Positions 320 through 55,900 of a stretch of DNA of 64,000 nt are shown piece by piece; position 1 is the stretch's first letter; the number at the start of each line of letters is the position of its first letter. The notes below the pieces were generated by a model. It had not been told where the DNA came from. It worked only from the letters and a program-made list of their open reading frames with translations, and made no database searches. Position numbers and translations under genes: made by a program. The stretch is from Gammaproteobacteria bacterium (GTDB lineage Bacteria; Pseudomonadota; Gammaproteobacteria; G965277405): positions 544,001 through 608,000 of the forward strand of contig OZ255726.1 in the NCBI GenBank assembly GCA_965277405.1, in the 5' to 3' direction.

Positions 320-3300
320 ATGAACAAACAGATATTATTTTTAGCGCTAGGACTATTAGCTATAGCAGGCTGTAACAATGGAAGTAGCATCGATCTGCTC
401 ACGCTGCGACCATGTGCACCGCACGCTATAGCAGGCTGTAACAATGGAAGTAGCAGCGATGAGTCTAGTACCAGTAACGAAGTTGTGGCAGGTCAAAATG
501 ATACTAAGATTAAAACAATCTATGCAACCGACTCTGCTTTTGCCGCGCTGACCAACGCTGGAGGCGTCGTTACTTGGGGGAGTACGTCTTGGGGCGGCGA
601 TAGTTCAGGCGTGCAGGATCAACTGACTGACGTTACAGCAATCTATGCGGCCCACTACGGGGCTTTTGCCGCGCTTAAAAACGATGGGACTGTCGTTACT
701 TGGGGGAGTACGTCTTCGGGCGGCGATAGTGCAGCGGTGCAGCAGCTACTGAATAACGTTACAGCAATCTATGCAACCGACTTTGCTTTTGCCGCGCTTA
801 AAAACGATGGGACTGTCGTTACTTGGGGGAGTACGTATTGGGGCGGCGATAGTTCAGGCGTGCAGCAGCTACTGAATAACGTTACAGCAATCTATGCAAA
901 CCGCTATGCTTTTGCCGCGCTTAAAAACGATGGGACTGTCGTTACTTGGGGTGAGGAGGATGACGGCGGCGATAGTGCAGCGGTGCAGCATCAACTGACT
1001 AACGTTACAGCAATCTATGCAGCCCGCACTGCTTTTGCCGCGCTTAAAAACGATGGGACTGTCGTTACTTGGGGTGAGGAGGATGACGGCGGCGATAGTG
1101 CAGCGGTGCAGCAGCTACTGACTAACGTTACAGCAATCTATGCAACCGACATTGCTTTTGCCGCGCTTAAAAACGATGGGACTGTCGTTACTTGGGGGGG
1201 TACGTATTGGGGCGGCGATAGTTCAGGCGTGCAGCAGCTACTGAATAACGTGACAGCAATCTATGCAAACCGCTATGCTTTTGCCGCGCTTAAAAACGAT
1301 GGGACTGTCGTTACTTGGGGTGAGGAGGATGACGGCGGCGATAGTGCAGCGGTGCAGCATCAACTGACTAACGTTACAGCAATCTATGCAGCCCGCACTG
1401 CTTTTGCCGCGCTTAAAAACGATGGGGGCGTCGTTACTTGGGGGAGTACGTCTAACGGCGGCGATAGTGCAGCGGTGCAGCAGCAACTGACTAACGTTAC
1501 AGCAATCTATGCAACCAAGTATGCTTTTGCCGCGCTTAAAAACGATGGGACTGTCGTTACTTGGGGTGAGGAGGATGACGGCGGCGATAGTGCAGGCGTG
1601 CAGCAGCAACTGACTGACGTTACTGCAATCTATGCAACCGATAGGGCTTTTGCCGCGCTGACCAACGCTGGGCGCGTCGTTACTTGGGGGAATGAGGATT
1701 ACGGCGGCGGTGAGTCTAGCTTGAATAGTGAAGCTGACGGTGGCTACCCACACATCATAACTCCCCCAGCTGCACCAAGCAATGTAAGCGCAGCAGCAGG
1801 TGATGGGGAAGGAGAAATAATTATTAGTTGGGATAGTGTCGCTGGTGTAGCTGTATATAATCTGTATTGGGCAACAACAGCTGGTGCTGGTAAAGATGGC
1901 AGCAAAATATCCGCAGTAGCCAGCCCATACCTGCATACAGAGCGTGCCAATACAGAGACATATTATTACACAATAACCGCAAACAATGACGACGGTGAGT
2001 CGAGCTCCAGTAACGAAACATCTGCATCACCAATCCCAGCTGCACCAACCAATGTAAGCGCAGCAGCAGGTGATGGGGAAGGAGAAATAATTATTAGTTG
2101 GGATAGTGTCGCTGGTGTAGCTGCATATAATCTGTATTGGGCAACAACAGCTGGTGCTGGTAAACTTGCCAGCAAAATATCCGCAGTAGCCAGCCCATAC
2201 CTGCATGCAGAGCTTGCCAATACAGAGACATATTATTACACAATAACCGCAAACAATGCCAGCGGTGAGTCTAGCTTGAGTAGCGAAGTTGCGGCAACAC
2301 TAATTGCATCCAATGACGGCGGTGAGTCTAGCTCCAGTAGCGAATATATGGCAGGTCAAAATGATTCTAAGATTAAAACAATCTATGCAACCGACTCTGC
2401 TTTTGCCGCGCTGACCAACGCTGGGGGCGTCGTTACTTGGGGTGATTATAGTTACGGCGGCGATAGTTCAGGCGTGCAGGATCAACTGACTGACGTTACA
2501 GCAATCTATGCGGCCCACTACGGGGCTTTTGCCGCGCTTAAAAACGATGGGACTGTCGTTACTTGGGGGAGTACGTCTTGGGGCGGCGATAGTGCAGCGG
2601 TGCAGCATCTACTGACTAACGTTACAGCAATCTATGCAACCTGGGAAGCTTTTGCCGCGCTTAAAAACGATGGGGGCGTCGTTACTTGGGGGAGTACGTC
2701 TAACGGCGGCGATAGTGCAGCGGTGCAGCATCTACTGAATAACGTTACAGCAATCTATGCAAACCGCTATGCTTTTGCCGCGCTTACAAACGATGGGGGC
2801 GTCGTTACTTGGGGGAGTACGTCTAACGGCGGCGATAGTGCAGCGGTGCAGCATCTACTGAATAACGTTACAGCAATCTATGCAACCAAGTATGCTTTTG
2901 CCGCGCTTAAAAACGATGGGACTGTCGTTACTTGGGGTGAGGAGGATGACGGCGGCGATAGTGCAGCGGTGCAGCAGCTACTGAATAACGTTACAGCAAT
3001 CTATGCAACCGATACTGCTTTTGCCGCGCTTACCAACGCTGCGCGCGTCGTTACTTGGGGTGATGGGTATGACGGCGGCGATAGTGCAGCGGTGCAGCAG
3101 CTACTGAATAACGTTACAGCAATCTATGCAACCGATAGGGCTTTTGCCGCGCTTAAAAACGATGGGACTGTCGTTACTTGGGGGAGTACGTCTAACGGCG
3201 GCGATAGTGCAGCGGTGCAGCATCTACTGAATAACGTTACAGCAATCTATGCAACCAAGTATGCTTTTGCCGCGCTTAAAAACGATGGGACTGTCGTTAC

Positions 3301-6300
3301 TTGGGGTGAGGAGGATGACGGCGGCGATAGTGCAGCGGTGCAGCAGCAACTGACTGACGTTACAGCAATCTATGCAGCCAAGTATGCTTTTGCCGCGCTT
3401 AAAAACGATGGGACTGTCGTTACTTGGGGTTCTGAGGATAACGGCGGCGATAGTGCAGGCGTGCAGCAGCAACTGACTGACGTTACTGCAATCTATGCAA
3501 CCGATAGGGCTTTTGCCGCGCTGACCAACGCTGGGCGCGTCGTTACTTGGGGGAATGAGGATTACGGCGGCGGTGAGTCTAGCTTGAATAGTGAAGCTGA
3601 CGGTGGCTACCCACACATCATAACTCCCCCAGCTGCACCAAGCAATGTAAGCGCAGCAGCAGGTGATGGGGAAGGAGAAATAATTATTAGTTGGGATAGT
3701 GTCGCTGGTGTAGCTGCATATAATCTGTATTGGGCAACAACAGCTGGTGCTGGTAAAGATGGCAGCAAAATATCCGCAGTAGCCAGCCCATACCTGCATA
3801 CAGAGCGTGTCAATACAGAGACATATTATTACACAATAACCGCAAACAATGACGACGGTGAGTCGAGCTCCAGTAACGAAACATCTGCATCACCAATCCC
3901 AGCTGCACCAACCAATGTAAGCGCAGCAGCAGGTGATGGGGAAGGAGAAATAATTATTAGTTGGGATAGTGTCGCTGGTGTAGCTGCATATAATCTGTAT
4001 TGGGCAACAACAGCTGGTGCTGGTAAAGATGGCAGCAAAATATCCGCAGTAGCCAGCCCATACCTGCATACAGAGCGTGCCAATACAGAGACATATTATT
4101 ACACAATAACCGCAAACAATGACGACGGTGAGTCGAGCTCCAGTAACGAAACATCTGCATCACCAATCCCAGCTGCACCAACCAATGTAAGCGCAGCAGC
4201 AGGTGATGGGAGAGGAGAAATAACCATTAGTTGGAATCAGGTAAATAATGCCGATTCATACAATCTATATTGGGCGACAAGCGCTGGATATGGTAAATCT
4301 GGCAGCAAAATATCCGCAGTAGCCAGCCCATACCTGCATACAGAGCGTGCCAATACAGAGACATATTATTACACAATAACCGCAAACAATGACGACGGTG
4401 AGTCGAGCTCCAGTAACGAAACATCTGCATCACCAATCCCAGCTGCACCAAGCAATGTAAGCGCAGCAGCAGGTGATGGGAGAGGAGAAATAACCATTAG
4501 TTGGAATCAGGTAAATAATGCCGATTCATACAATCTATATTGGGCGACAAGCGCTGGATATGGTAAATCTGGCAGCAAAATATCGCGAGTAACCAGCCCA
4601 TACACGCATACAGGGCGTTATGACGAATCATACTATTACACAATAACCGCAAACAATGACGACGGTGAGTCGAGCTCCAGTAACGAAACATCTGCATCAC
4701 CAATCCCAGCTGCACCAACCAATGTAAGCGCAGCAGCAGGTGATGGGGAAGGAGAAATAACCATTAGTTGGAATCAGGTAAATAATGCAGATTCATACAA
4801 TCTATATTGGGCGACAAGCGCTGGATATGGTAAATCTGGCAGCAAAATATCGCGAGTAACCAGCCCATACACGCATACAGATCGTTATAATGAATCCACA
4901 TACTATTACACAATAACCGCAAACAATGCCGGCGGTGAGTCTAGCTTGAGTAGCGAAGTTGCGGCAACAGCAACTGTATCCAATGACGGCGATAGTTCAG
5001 CGGTGCAGCAGCTATTGAATAACGTTACAGCAATCTATGCAACCGATAGGGCTTTTGCCGCGCTTACCAACGATGGGCGTGTCGTTACTTGGGGGAGTGA
5101 TAATGGCGGCGGCGATAGTTCAGCAGTGCAGCAGCAACTGACTAACGTTACAGCAATCTATTCAAACTACTTTGCTTTTGCAGCGCTTACCAACGCCAGG
5201 ACTGTCGTTACTTGGGGGAGTACGTCTAACGGCGGCGATAGTGCAGCGGTGCAGCAGCTACTGACTAACGTTACAGCAATCTATGCAAACCGCTATGCTT
5301 TTGCCGCGCTTAAAAACGATGGGGGCGTCGTTACTTGGGGGAGTACGTCTAACGGCGGCGATAGTTCAGGCGTGCAGGATCAACTGACTGACGTTACAGC
5401 AATCTATGCAACCGACTTTGCTTTTGCCGCGCTTAAAAACGATGGGACTGTCGTTACTTGGGGGGGTACGTATTGGGGCGGCGATAGTTCAGGCGTGCAG
5501 CAGCTACTGAATAACGTTAAAGAAATCTATACAAACGACCACGCTTTTGCCGCGCTGACCAACGCTGAGCGCGTCGTTACTTGGGGTGATGAGGATTGGG
5601 GCGGTGATAGTTCAGGCGTGCAGCAGCAACTGAATAACGTGACAGCAATCTATGCAGCCAAGTATGCTTTTGCCGCGCTTAAACACGATGGGACTGTCGT
5701 TACTTGGGGGAGTACGTCTAACGGCGGCGATAGTGCAGCGGTGCAGCAGCAACTGACTAACGTTACAGCAATCTATGCAACCGATTGGGCTTTTGCCGCG
5801 CTGACCAACGCTGGGGGCGTCGTTACTTGGGGGAGTGAGTATTCTGGCGGTGATAGTGCAGCGGTGCAGCATCTACTGAATAACGTTACAGCAATCTATG
5901 CAACCCGCTATGCTTTTGCCGCGCTGAAAAACGATGGGACTGTCGTTACTTGGGGGAGTGAGTATTCTGGCGGCAATAGTTCAGGCGTGCAGCAGCAACT
6001 GACTAACGTTACAGCAATTTATGCAACCTATAGGGCTTTTGCCGCGCTTACAAACGCTGGGGGCGTCGTTACTTGGGGGGACATTAGTTACGGCGGCGAT
6101 AGTTCAAGGGTGCAGCAGCAACTGACTAACGTTACAGCAATCTATGCAACCGAAAGGGCTTTTGCCGCGCTTACCAACGCTGGGGGCGTCGTTACTTGGG
6201 GTGATGAGGGTTACGGTGGTGGTGATCTAGTTTTCAGTAGCGAAGTTCCTTCCACACCAACTGTATCTAGTGAGTCGTATACGGCTACTGCGTCTTCGAC

Positions 6301-6709
6301 TGGCTGGTATAGCGACTATGTAACCTCGCCTGATCAAGCTATTGATTCTCGAGGCGACACTTTTTGGTGTGCTAATTCAATTCCAGCGTGGTATCAAGTT
6401 GAGTTGCCTTCCATTCAGCCAATTTCTCAAATAAGTTTATACATTTATTACCATAATGTTTCAGGAAATATACAGTTTTCTAGTGATGGCAACAGATGGC
6501 AAGAATTCACAAACTTTGATACAAATACAAACATAGATACAACTAATTACGCATATACAATATCTAACATAGATACAGTAGAATTAAAAACTTATAACCT
6601 AACAAATACTAGTGCGAAATTTGTCAGGATAAATTTTTTGACTACTGATGCCCCTGATTCTCATATCTATAAGGCATGCTTGACTGAAGTTGAGATAATA
6701 AGTCCATAA
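320..6709 (+). CDS. Giant surface lipoprotein: 3 x 10 RCC1/BLIP-II-like 41-aa repeats, 7 fibronectin type III domains, C-terminal discoidin/F5/8C-like domain
   Basis: ATG at 320 after gggtggga; signal peptide MNKQILFLALGLLAIAG-C (lipobox); repeat AFAALKNDGTVVTWG-xxxx-GGDS-VQ-L-NV-AIYA; FN3 motif PAAPxNVSA..ISW..YNLYW..YYYTITAxN; tip ATASS..AID..TFW..WYQVEL..AKFVRI..EVEI. Confidence 0.85.
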   Translation: MNKQILFLALGLLAIAGCNNGSSIDLLTLRPCAPHAIAGCNNGSSSDESSTSNEVVAGQNDTKIKTIYATDSAFAALTNAGGVVTWGSTSWGGDSSGVQDQLTDVTAIYAAHYGAFAALKNDGTVVTWGSTSSGGDSAAVQQLLNNVTAIYATDFAFAALKNDGTVVTWGSTYWGGDSSGVQQLLNNVTAIYANRYAFAALKNDGTVVTWGEEDDGGDSAAVQHQLTNVTAIYAARTAFAALKNDGTVVTWGEEDDGGDSAAVQQLLTNVTAIYATDIAFAALKNDGTVVTWGGTYWGGDSSGVQQLLNNVTAIYANRYAFAALKNDGTVVTWGEEDDGGDSAAVQHQLTNVTAIYAARTAFAALKNDGGVVTWGSTSNGGDSAAVQQQLTNVTAIYATKYAFAALKNDGTVVTWGEEDDGGDSAGVQQQLTDVTAIYATDRAFAALTNAGRVVTWGNEDYGGGESSLNSEADGGYPHIITPPAAPSNVSAAAGDGEGEIIISWDSVAGVAVYNLYWATTAGAGKDGSKISAVASPYLHTERANTETYYYTITANNDDGESSSSNETSASPIPAAPTNVSAAAGDGEGEIIISWDSVAGVAAYNLYWATTAGAGKLASKISAVASPYLHAELANTETYYYTITANNASGESSLSSEVAATLIASNDGGESSSSSEYMAGQNDSKIKTIYATDSAFAALTNAGGVVTWGDYSYGGDSSGVQDQLTDVTAIYAAHYGAFAALKNDGTVVTWGSTSWGGDSAAVQHLLTNVTAIYATWEAFAALKNDGGVVTWGSTSNGGDSAAVQHLLNNVTAIYANRYAFAALTNDGGVVTWGSTSNGGDSAAVQHLLNNVTAIYATKYAFAALKNDGTVVTWGEEDDGGDSAAVQQLLNNVTAIYATDTAFAALTNAARVVTWGDGYDGGDSAAVQQLLNNVTAIYATDRAFAALKNDGTVVTWGSTSNGGDSAAVQHLLNNVTAIYATKYAFAALKNDGTVVTWGEEDDGGDSAAVQQQLTDVTAIYAAKYAFAALKNDGTVVTWGSEDNGGDSAGVQQQLTDVTAIYATDRAFAALTNAGRVVTWGNEDYGGGESSLNSEADGGYPHIITPPAAPSNVSAAAGDGEGEIIISWDSVAGVAAYNLYWATTAGAGKDGSKISAVASPYLHTERVNTETYYYTITANNDDGESSSSNETSASPIPAAPTNVSAAAGDGEGEIIISWDSVAGVAAYNLYWATTAGAGKDGSKISAVASPYLHTERANTETYYYTITANNDDGESSSSNETSASPIPAAPTNVSAAAGDGRGEITISWNQVNNADSYNLYWATSAGYGKSGSKISAVASPYLHTERANTETYYYTITANNDDGESSSSNETSASPIPAAPSNVSAAAGDGRGEITISWNQVNNADSYNLYWATSAGYGKSGSKISRVTSPYTHTGRYDESYYYTITANNDDGESSSSNETSASPIPAAPTNVSAAAGDGEGEITISWNQVNNADSYNLYWATSAGYGKSGSKISRVTSPYTHTDRYNESTYYYTITANNAGGESSLSSEVAATATVSNDGDSSAVQQLLNNVTAIYATDRAFAALTNDGRVVTWGSDNGGGDSSAVQQQLTNVTAIYSNYFAFAALTNARTVVTWGSTSNGGDSAAVQQLLTNVTAIYANRYAFAALKNDGGVVTWGSTSNGGDSSGVQDQLTDVTAIYATDFAFAALKNDGTVVTWGGTYWGGDSSGVQQLLNNVKEIYTNDHAFAALTNAERVVTWGDEDWGGDSSGVQQQLNNVTAIYAAKYAFAALKHDGTVVTWGSTSNGGDSAAVQQQLTNVTAIYATDWAFAALTNAGGVVTWGSEYSGGDSAAVQHLLNNVTAIYATRYAFAALKNDGTVVTWGSEYSGGNSSGVQQQLTNVTAIYATYRAFAALTNAGGVVTWGDISYGGDSSRVQQQLTNVTAIYATERAFAALTNAGGVVTWGDEGYGGGDLVFSSEVPSTPTVSSESYTATASSTGWYSDYVTSPDQAIDSRGDTFWCANSIPAWYQVELPSIQPISQISLYIYYHNVSGNIQFSSDGNRWQEFTNFDTNTNIDTTNYAYTISNIDTVELKTYNLTNTSAKFVRINFLTTDAPDSHIYKACLTEVEIISP
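359..455 (+). repeat. Perfect 31-bp direct repeat (359-389, 425-455) flanking a unique 35-bp insert; in frame (66 bp)
   Basis: gctatagcaggctgtaacaatggaagtagca occurs twice, separated by tcgatctgctcacgctgcgaccatgtgcaccgcac. Confidence 0.95.
509..1712 (+). repeat. Coding tandem array 1: ten ~123-bp repeats
   Basis: Ten IYx..AFAAL..VVTWG units counted in the translation. Confidence 0.9.
2372..3575 (+). repeat. Coding tandem array 2: ten ~123-bp repeats
   Basis: Ten units counted; array offset 1863 bp from array 1. Confidence 0.9.
4988..6225 (+). repeat. Coding tandem array 3: ten ~123-bp repeats
   Basis: Ten units counted in the translation. Confidence 0.9.
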
Positions 6710-52924: not shown

Positions 52925-55900
52925 CTAATCTTGATGATATTTAATTACTAATTGCCATTGACTAAAGGTGTCATCGTGACTGTCTGCATAGTCAGTATTG
53001 TCATCTGCTACAAAATCACCTGCTGCAAACAAATCCTTCACTGTTATTCTCCAATGACCTTGTATGCTTTCACCAAGAAATGCATGCACAGCTATGGGTT
53101 GCTGATAACCTAGGTTAGCTTGAGTGTGTCCATTTCCTGCAGGATACGCCGGATACGATGTTCCTGCAGGCGATGTTAAAGATATTTCTATGTCTTGCAG
53201 CGCTGTTGTCGTTAGTTTAACAAATAGGTTGAGGTGGTCGATTTTGCCAGTTGCTGCAACGTATAGTTCCTTGCTAACACCATCGCTATTTTTATTCGGT
53301 ACAAGCATGGGTACAAAAGTATGATTTTTGGTAATTGCCTCAATTCTGTCATGGGTAATCAACTGCGAATAGCTCTTCGCCATCGCTAATGCTGCATCTA
53401 CATTGACCAAACCAAAGCCATACCAATCGCTGTAATTAAGACCTGCCGCATTAGTAATCCAACCCCGACTAAATTGATAAGCGCCGCTACCTGGAATATC
53501 TGTAGTCACTGTGTAGTCGGCATCAATTATCGTTGCTGTTTTCGCCAATATATACCGCACATCCCAAATAGTTAATGCTGGATGTTGCGAAAGTAACAAC
53601 GCAACCGCGCCACTGACAATTGCAGCCGCTGCGCGCGTACCGTGGAAAGTATTGGTGTAATTGCATGTTGGATCGTCATGGTGGAATTGGTTTGCTAAAA
53701 CGTTACTTGCTGCATTATCTGCTAACTCATGGTTACTATAACCCCTGCTACAGGAAGTTACATCTGTGGTGAACATTCCAGGTTCTCCAGCTAACATTCC
53801 AGGTTCTCCAGCTGATGGACTACCTTGCTCGCCACCAAAACCACTCACCCAAATAGCCCCGGCTGCAGCATAGCTCGCGCGTTTCCCGAAGGCGTTGACT
53901 GCGCCAACAGTGATGATCGGTAAGATGTCTTCCTTATCAAAACCAGCCAAGCCACAGCTCGTACCTATTACATTCGCTTGGCTGCATGCGTCACCATCAC
54001 CAATATATGAATCGCCTGCAGGTTTAATAAAAATGACTCCTTTGCCGTTTCTGCCATCTTGAATCCTGCGCATGATTATTGCGTTGCTGCCAATTGCTGC
54101 GGTAGCTGGCGTGCCGATGTGATCAAGGCGACTAGCTAGCTGGTCGCCTAAATACACAATATCGGCTTCAACTGCTGGGGAATCAGTGGCACTGGGGTCG
54201 CCATCACCAACACTATATTGTAAATACGTGGCATTGCTATTGACACCAGCAGCCATATTGTTAAAGCCAAGCAATTTGGCTTTGGGTGCGACACCCAAGC
54301 CACCCATACCATTATCTGCCATGGCAATCAAGCCAGCTATTGCTGTACCATGGTCGCCGTCACTACCCCTTGGGCTGGGATCGGTTGTTCCTGTCGCGGC
54401 ATTAGGTTGCATAAATGACCCCGTTGCAAAAGCATATCCTTGCCGAGGATCAATATTGTCAGCTAAATCAGGGTGGGTTATTTGCAAGCCAGTATCAACC
54501 ACGCTCACCAACGTTCCTTGACCGAGGCAGCCATCAGTGCGCCATGCACGTTGTAAGTTTAAATGGATGCTACTATCCATTTTGCTAGCATCCATGCCGG
54601 TGGCAATTTGACCTTGTTGCCTACCATCTAAGTACCATTGATATTTTTCTAATGGATTGCTATCTGGTAACGATACAAGCGTGTCTGTATCACAATTTGA
54701 ATTAACCGCTGTCATAAAAATAGTTGCTGTACTAACGGGGAAGTCCACCACATTAGATACATAACCCGAAACCACATATTCTGCTTTGCTTGCTACTATT
54801 GTTGGTGACCCTTGGATTGCACAGCTGTCGTTTGCCACAACTAGTGTCAAGCCAGCAGGTAGCGGCGGTGCTATGCTGCAACGAACAATTTCAACAGTGT
54901 TGACAAATTGCCATTGCTGCTGATTTTGGTATGTCAACATCGTCTGGGCAATTTTATCATCCATTTGCGGTAGCGCATAGATGGCGGTGATGAGGACGTC
55001 TGCACTGCTATCACCAGCGGAATTTGACCCAGTAATAACGTAGTTGCTAGTTTGTGTTGCACTAACATTGTTGGGACTGCCATCAATTTGGCAGGTGCTG
55101 CGTCCATTGCCACCTACAGCTATATTCAGGGCTAAACCTGGCGGCAGCGGTGGTGTGGGGGTACAACTGGTCACATCACCACCATTGTTCTCAATTATTA
55201 TATGCTGAGGAATTCGATCACTGACTACAAACACCATTGCGGTATTGTTATATAATAATGCTGGTGCTTGATCATTGGCTGTTTGATCGTTGGGTGTTTG
55301 ATCATTGACAGTGATGCTATCGCGTAATGCTATAGACCTTCGCGACCTTGACCTTCGTTGCGGCTCTATTCGTGCACTTCTAGCACTTCGAGCACTCCGT
55401 TGAGGATTTGAAGCATAAGAACGTCCAGAAAACGGATTCTCATATATTTCGATGAGTACCGTTGCGCGACTTTCGCCGCCGCTATTGGACCCTTTTATTG
55501 TATACATTATCTCGTATTCTTGAGGTACCGTTGGAGTTCCTGTTATCTGACACGTTGCTTTACCTAAGAAGGTTGCAACTGCAAGCTGCAAACCACCAGC
55601 TAGCTGTGGTGCAATATCACAACTTATTACATCCCCACCAAAGTTTAAAAAGTTCACAGCTTGTATGGGTATACCTATTATGTAATACTGATCTGCTAAT
55701 CTGCCCAAAATTGGAGGGATATCATAGTTCACCGTGATGCTGATATCTGCGCTGCTAGTGCCGCCGCTATTCGACGCTGTGATTGTATACGTTATCGGGT
55801 CTTCTTGCAGGGTGGTTGGGGTTCCTGTTATCTGGCAACTAGCTCCATCTGGCGTTTTCTTAAGTGTTAAACCATCAGGCCATGCTGCGCTATTATCCCC

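Follow-up and report, generated by a model that had tools for sequence, protein, structure and literature searches.

The window analyzed here is a stretch of 64,000 nucleotides (nt) of the genome of a Gammaproteobacteria bacterium (assembly GCA_965277405.1, contig OZ255726.1, positions 544,001 to 608,000 of the forward strand). The genome consists of one contig of 2,174,577 base pairs (bp) with a G+C content of 44.8%; contig positions carry the prefix C1, and bare numbers are positions in the window. Near the left end of the window lies a gene for a giant lipoprotein, in which a 36-bp segment of the signal region is present twice around an unrelated insert. We describe this insertion (event A), a second one of the same geometry elsewhere in the genome (event B), and their relation to the two CRISPR-Cas loci of the genome. 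The features of the window are as follows.

320..6709, + strand: giant lipoprotein gene, host of the insertion; open reading frame of 2129 amino acids from the ATG at 320
320..373, + strand: predicted signal peptide MNKQILFLALGLLAIAGC, including the first lipobox, at the original position; codon for Cys18 at 371-373, from the translation
356..372, + strand: putative pseudo leader-repeat junction TTA/GCTATAGCAGGCTG (the slash marks the junction), matching the array-1 junction CTA/AGTATAGCACTCTG at 12/17 positions
359..394, + strand: copy 1 of the duplicated target (pseudo-repeat A), with T at 390, where copy 2 and 5/6 paralogues have G
395..424, + strand: spacer-like insert CTGCTCACGCTGCGACCATGTGCACCGCAC, 30 bp, 67% G+C, coding for LLTLRPCAPH
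425..460, + strand: copy 2 of the 36-bp target, the ancestral version; the paralogue at C1:789642-789677 has this same sequence as its only copy

The sequence at 359-389 recurs exactly at 425-455 (31 bp). A repeat finder lengthens the pair to 36 bp, 359-394 and 425-460, which differ only in T390 versus G456 (97% identity). This leaves an unrelated insert of 30 bp, 395-424, and a period of 66 bp. The initial annotation of this DNA had reported a 31-bp duplication around a 35-bp insert; the exact 31 bp stands, whereas the actual geometry is 36 + 30 with one mismatch. Because G is found at the corresponding position in 5/6 paralogues, the G-to-T change at 390 is, as judged from this comparison, a later substitution in copy 1. 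The annotation had also described the insert as G+C richer than its surroundings (22/35), and we obtain 0.63 for 390-424 and 0.67 for 395-424, compared with 0.27 for 200-358 and 0.45 for 461-560. The AT-rich upstream region that it pointed out is real here (0.27 at 200-358) but is not shared by event B, whose upstream flank is G+C-rich. The gain of 66 bp is in frame: the open reading frame from the ATG at 320 reads MNKQILFLALGLLAIAGCNNGSSIDLLTLRPCAPHAIAGCNNGSSSDESS... and the translation contains ...LLAIAGCNNGSSIDLLTLRPCAPHAIAGCNNGSSSDESS..., in agreement with the earlier statement that an in-frame gain had duplicated the lipobox. The 35-mer at 390-424 occurs once in the window when up to 3 mismatches are allowed, with 0 occurrences expected (100 shuffles). 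BLAST against the whole genome found no second match to the insert of more than 12 exact bases (15 with one mismatch), and the best ungapped second match to the 30-mer anywhere in the genome is 22/30.

The site without an insertion can be seen within the same genome. N-terminal sequences of six paralogues (C1:1489241, 1481916, 1491096, 1486153, 1480036 and 789642) were aligned, and all six have a lone lipobox and no insert. The third genomic occurrence of the 31-mer, on the minus strand at C1:789647, belongs to one of these paralogues, which has one copy of the 36-mer, in the form of copy 2, and no insert. Because the single lipobox without insert is found in 6/6 paralogues, the 66 bp are, on this alignment, an insertion in this one lipoprotein gene. 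The lipoprotein locus was absent from 40 genomes of relatives, all of them related only at the level of class.

The genome harbors two cas1 and two cas2 genes, all of them open frames that score above the curated cut-offs (NCBIfam); the cas1 products match TIGR03639 with E values of 5.5e-70 and 9.6e-87. Each locus consists of a cas9-cas1-cas2 operon with an array directly after it.

C1:1404093-1415683: locus 1, with a Cas9 of 1089 amino acids and array 1 at C1:1408852-1415683
Locus 2: a Cas9 of 1044 amino acids and array 2 at C1:2057522-2058800

In array 1, 104 repeats of 36 bp enclose 103 spacers, of which 97 measure 30 bp, 4 measure 29 bp and 2 measure 31 bp; in array 2, 20 repeats of 36 bp enclose 19 spacers, 15 of them 30 bp long. 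None of the 122 spacers is longer than 31 bp. The array unit is thus 36 + 30 = 66 bp, precisely that of the scar in the window. Between cas2 and the arrays there is too little space for csn2 or cas4, and both loci are therefore, by gene content, of type II-C. The repeats of array 1 are degenerate at the cas-distal end, so that the leader of this array adjoins cas2. An anti-repeat is found upstream of each cas9. If both RNAs are taken as antisense to the cas genes, that of locus 1 forms a duplex with the full repeat (-47.1 kcal/mol). In array 2, spacer 14 is nearly identical to spacer 17, as are spacers 15, 16 and 18 among themselves, and one spacer of only 22 bp lies beside a repeat with 8 mismatches, which suggests that the old end of this array has undergone internal duplication and decay. 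In the window, 54702-54718 (C1:598702) is identical to 17 nt of array-2 spacers 16 and 18. The same 17 nt occur with identical flanks at C1:1392 and C1:12493, and the match over the full spacer is 19/30; it is probably due to chance.

The genome, with the two arrays left out, was scanned for 36-mers repeated at periods of 60 to 72 bp with at least 31/36 matches. At period 66 there are three clusters, namely, the window site (35/36), C1:1089165 (36/36) and C1:981730 (34/36), and there are none at periods 65, 67 and 68. The cluster at C1:981730 was rejected as a low-complexity coding repeat of the TTCATC type. The remaining one is event B.

C1:1089165-1089266, outside the window, from the genome scan: second ectopic unit, a perfect 36 + 30 + 36

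Here GCTATAGAGCATGGATTGTTTGATGCGCTAGGGCGC is present twice around the 30-mer CGACCATCAGTCGACAACCCCTCTCGCTGC. Event B is in frame in the gene for a 345-amino-acid sugar-binding regulator of the SorC/DeoR type, upstream of glpD, and it duplicates AIEHGLFDALGR and adds RPSVDNPSRC to the regulator. In an alignment with 17 homologues chosen among the 120 matches listed (617 at E <= 1e-20), none has residues in the columns of these 22 residues. An AlphaFold model of the regulator, built on this alignment, has a mean predicted local distance difference test score (pLDDT) of 82, with low confidence only around residues 81-110, and its second copy runs on into a long helix at 106-132, so that the insert looks in this model like an added loop. 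The boundaries of the events are unambiguous on the left; on the right they are ambiguous by at most 2 nt in event B. Each ectopic site consists of two copies and one insert only, with no further growth.

Comparison of the two targets with the array ends points to array 1. The 12/17 match of target A to the array-1 junction (positions -3 to +14) is reached by only 7.7e-5 of genome positions on both strands, and its match to the array-1 repeat, 19/36, by 5e-4 of genome 36-mers. Its match to the array-2 junction is ordinary (9/17, reached by 1.3e-2 of positions). Target B matches the array-1 repeat at 13/36, and its match to the array-2 junction, 6/17, is again ordinary. Both targets begin with GCTATAG and the array-1 repeat begins with AGTATAG, so that TATAG is common to all at positions 3-7. 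GCTATAG has 272 occurrences on both strands, or 6e-5 per oriented position, and the probability of another, independent target opening with this 7-mer by chance is of order 6e-5. By eye, the far ends of the two targets have no common motif, which fits a second cut placed by distance. Both ectopic spacers start and end with C. Among array-1 spacers C is the most frequent base at either end (33 and 30 of 97), and in array 2 it seldom stands there (2 and 1 of 15). Because both the likeness to junction and repeat and the C at the spacer ends favor array 1, while the matches to array 2 are ordinary, locus 1 is most likely the agent, as far as these comparisons indicate.

The source of the event B insert is in the genome itself. 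This spacer is an exact 30/30 copy of C1:2071569-2071598, which lies inside a native gene for a class-V aminotransferase (Aminotran_5, E = 4.9e-61), where its conserved domain begins; spacer B is thus self-derived, and outside its own genome no match to it was found. The aminotransferase copy has no flanking duplication, and a discrete 30-bp piece has therefore moved. The source is 982 kb from the insertion site and 12.8 kb from the end of array 2, which, as one case only, is suggestive of a protospacer hotspot near that array. A second self protospacer, a degenerate one, is the match of array-1 spacer 22 to C1:1943878-1943907, at 26 positions with the mismatches at positions 4-7, on the presumed side of the protospacer adjacent motif (PAM). 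No other self protospacer is known besides these two, and in each of them positions +5 to +7 on the presumed PAM side read AAA. The two ectopic spacers (window 395-424 and C1:1089201-1089230) share the 7-mer CGACCAT, which array-2 spacers 1 and 17 also contain (2/122 array spacers); we dropped it as a meaningful shared word, its frequency in the genome being ordinary (158 + 168 copies).

A search of public runs gave three runs from one study, none of them listed as RNA, and their Logan contigs were compared with the window over 150-700. Runs X1 and X2 each contain a 95-nt contig that covers 360-454 with 0 differences. Its depth is 26 in X1 and 155 in X2, and that of the flanking unique contigs is 24-26 and 158-177, respectively. 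The contig bounds, 360 and 454, are what a 31-mer graph yields around an exact 31-bp repeat. The 95-nt contig has T390 and the next contig (431-507) has G456. Run X3 has no cover at 397-453; a 91%-alike contig stops fitting at 394 and may be from a paralogue or another strain. An assembly artefact is excluded by the reads of X1 and X2.

Taken together, window positions 359-460 are, with high confidence, a fixed scar left when the genome's own type II-C Cas1-Cas2, most likely that of locus 1, once integrated a spacer off target. We infer the catalysis by Cas1-Cas2, and the order of the cuts, by analogy to the biochemistry of type II-A systems. By that analogy, the integrase with a 30-bp prespacer would attack a chromosomal site that imitates the leader-repeat junction (TnA/nnTATAG), the second cut would be placed at a fixed distance of 36 bp downstream by a ruler mechanism, and repair of the gaps would duplicate the 36-bp target on either side of the spacer. 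The G-to-T change at 390 arose afterwards. The lipoprotein gene stayed open because 36 + 30 = 66 bp corresponds to 22 codons and the spacer has no in-frame stop. The same process would have hit the SorC-type regulator gene, in that case with a spacer from the cell's own aminotransferase gene. Ectopic Cas1-Cas2 integration was also what the initial annotation had proposed, and our results support it: the genome has two cas1-cas2 modules with arrays of the predicted period of 66 bp, the paralogues have a single lipobox (6/6), the X1 and X2 contigs carry the insert at the depth of the flanks, and an origin of the insert from adjacent sequence, named there as a refuting outcome, finds no source either there or elsewhere in the genome (best 22/30). 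None of the tests proposed for refuting the idea refuted it. The suggested search for a protospacer and a PAM was fruitless for the window spacer, giving neither a source nor a PAM.

Several observations weigh against this explanation. The support for a Cas1-Cas2 origin is drawn from sequence. One base differs between the two window copies (T390/G456). Outside TATAG, the likeness of target B to the array-1 junction is weak (8/17, reached by 4e-2 of positions). The ectopic spacers are G+C-rich (0.67 and 0.63), and only 8/103 array-1 spacers reach 0.60. The runs X1 and X2 are from one study, possibly from the source sample of the genome, and are not independent biology. For the window spacer, BLAST against phages and plasmids gave best E values of 1-4, at chance level, an exact 30-mer scan of viral, metagenome and genome contigs gave no match, and 400 other genomes of the same class gave none with up to 3 mismatches. 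No PAM can be called from two self protospacers and from arrays without usable phage or plasmid matches. The missing source of the window spacer says little, because the array spacers are likewise nearly without such matches: as a control, the 103 spacers of array 1 matched no phage at E <= 1 and a single plasmid marginally (E = 0.6), and array 2 gave one marginal phage match (E = 0.4).

Among other explanations, a replication or repair accident without any CRISPR enzyme (template switching, for instance, or templated filler DNA inserted at a break) would account for the copying of the cell's own DNA from 982 kb away into event B, for the two bases (GC) common to the right junction of that event, and for a window insert without known source or PAM. 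We nevertheless consider it improbable. At two independent loci the duplication is exactly 36 bp and the insert exactly 30 bp, as in the unit of the resident arrays, an identical 7-mer that echoes the repeat end opens both targets, no such structure is found at periods 65, 67 and 68, and the window insert has no genomic template, the best match being 22/30. A small mobile element with an unusually long target duplication is less credible still, given that the two inserts are unrelated to each other, that neither folds into a hairpin better than shuffled sequences (z = 0.52 for the window insert and -1.08 for that of event B), and that one is single copy and the other a piece of a native aminotransferase gene.

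The geometry of the initial annotation, in which the same mechanism would have combined a 35-bp spacer with a 31-bp duplication, agrees with the observation that only 31 bp are identical between the copies. Its probability is likewise very small: 4/5 of the next bases also match, 0/122 array spacers exceed 31 bp, T390 is derived (G in 5/6 paralogues), and event B is exactly 36 + 30. Least probable of all, to the point of being negligible, is an artefact of assembly or sequencing (a chimera or an adapter), as two runs have Logan contigs that match 360-454 without a single difference at flank depth, and the insert is in frame.

Whether an ectopic unit could also supply a guide RNA can be judged from its pairing with the trans-activating CRISPR RNA (tracrRNA). 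The duplex energy is -16.0 kcal/mol for both copies of pseudo-repeat A and -13.3 kcal/mol for pseudo-repeat B, compared with -47.1 kcal/mol for the real repeat and a mean of -14.6 kcal/mol (sd 3.0) for the shuffled real repeat (n = 200). The pseudo-repeats cannot pair with tracrRNA, as they do no better than shuffles. Because of this, the ectopic units are probably silent scars, and a guide function is unlikely. A silent unit would explain why a self-derived spacer, which would be lethal in a working array, is tolerated.

Off-target integration as such is a known phenomenon. Nivala, Shipman and Church reportedly described in 2018 (Nat Microbiol 3:310) that it leads to 'neo-CRISPR' units with the type I-E system of Escherichia coli. 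According to the excerpts of the citing reports, off-target integration in E. coli with overexpressed Cas1-Cas2 makes new repeat-spacer units (PMC7054753, PMC6698737, bioRxiv 10.1101/148544), and the citing preprint mentions circumstantial natural evidence in two other species. The events described here resemble those accounts in that a resident integrase would have made a repeat-length duplication around a spacer-length insert outside an array. As far as the same excerpts go, they differ in that the system here is a natural one of type II-C without overexpression, and that there are two fixed events in still-open frames, with a common 7-nt target motif and one known self source.

In the type II-A system of Streptococcus thermophilus, the off-target sites resemble the leader-repeat junction and not the repeat-spacer junction, and a ruler places the second cut, with the repeat length kept at 36, according to the passages available from Kim et al. 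2019 (PMC6895254). Junction-like targets and a second site set by a ruler are the likeness to our case. By the same passages, the off-target events in S. thermophilus were mostly half-site events on plasmids and in vitro, whereas those found here are complete, repaired and inherited in the chromosome, in a type II-C system without Csn2 (PMC6895254). With the type II-C system of Neisseria meningitidis, as it is described in the passages at hand of PMC12477760, our loci have in common the order of cas9-cas1-cas2 followed by the array and acquisition at the array-adjacent leader end; crRNAs (CRISPR RNAs) transcribed from inside the repeats, and self-targeting spacers as a stated risk, are further points of likeness. 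Those passages contain neither 'off-target' nor 'ectopic', and the repeats, leader and Cas9 sequences of our genome are different (PMC12477760). Self DNA is sampled during acquisition and is normally removed by autoimmunity, with protospacer hotspots around active arrays, in the part of Shiimori et al. 2017 that was available (PMC5737086). The self sampling and the position of the spacer B source, 12.8 kb from array 2, are similar to this. The self spacers in that part of the study were transient inside arrays, whereas here a self spacer is kept at a presumably guide-less site (PMC5737086).

In a literature search that covered few subscription journals, no account of natural ectopic spacers within open reading frames, or of any in type II-C, came up; for coding genes it turned up only papers citing Nivala, Shipman and Church. 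The finding is an unusually clean natural type II-C case of the known off-target integration. Such integration has been documented mainly under overexpression and in vitro, and clean natural, inherited cases are few; this genome provides two type II-C (Cas9) cases with exact geometry, empty sites and a common target motif. They illustrate a cost and by-product of adaptive immunity, in which the integrase would mutate host genes and, because 36 + 30 is a multiple of three, add 22 in-frame residues rather than break the gene. The self spacer that is kept at a presumably guide-less site offers a rare view of acquisition before selection by autoimmunity.

The surroundings of the self protospacers contain one further feature. 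The 8 nt directly after the self protospacer of event B, GCAAGCTA (C1:2071599-2071606), are the same as the last 8 nt of the array-1 leader (C1:1408844-1408851); the 8-mer has 99 genomic occurrences on both strands, or 2.2e-5 per position and strand. At the spacer-22 self match, the complement of the stretch after it holds 7/8 nt of GCAAGCTA within 10 nt. The leader end after one self protospacer and its 7/8 echo at the other raise the speculative possibility, which we regard as rather unlikely, that the type II-C integrase creates the DNA ends that it samples, with nicked leader-like sites feeding the capture of prespacers. If so, silent ectopic units would keep an unselected record of self acquisitions that are lethal in a true array, and, as hits of 66 bp preserve the frame, CRISPR adaptation would be a recurrent source of protein insertions of 22 residues.

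For the annotation of the affected genes, the finding explains the odd double lipobox of the lipoprotein and the insert in a conserved domain of the regulator. The lipoprotein has Pfam matches to WD40_RLD/RCC1_2, fn3 and F5_F8_type_C_2, and its layout is one of RCC1-like repeats, fibronectin-III-type domains and a C-terminal galactose-binding-like domain. Its signal peptide, MNKQILFLALGLLAIAGC, with a short charged n-region, a hydrophobic core (h-region) and a lipobox that ends in Cys, is kept in the six paralogues; it was called with a lipobox pattern that we presume to mark lipoprotein signal peptides. Since the first lipobox still directly follows the n- and h-regions, we expect no change in cleavage and lipidation at Cys18, and, judged by position only, the first lipobox would be the one that is cleaved. 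The 22 added residues, with a second, unused lipobox and two more cysteines, would then sit in the linker of the mature protein, and the linker region after the lipobox varies freely among the paralogues.

The remainder of the host gene (window 468-6709) is built from 123-bp RCC1-like and 270-bp fibronectin-type units. Paralogues cluster at C1:1480000-1494000 and at C1:787000-790100, with near-identical signal peptides and upstream regions. The beginning of the window, 1-192, recurs with 83-90% identity in at least 9 other places in the genome (e.g., C1:787589, 1630898, 305473, 415573 and 847342).

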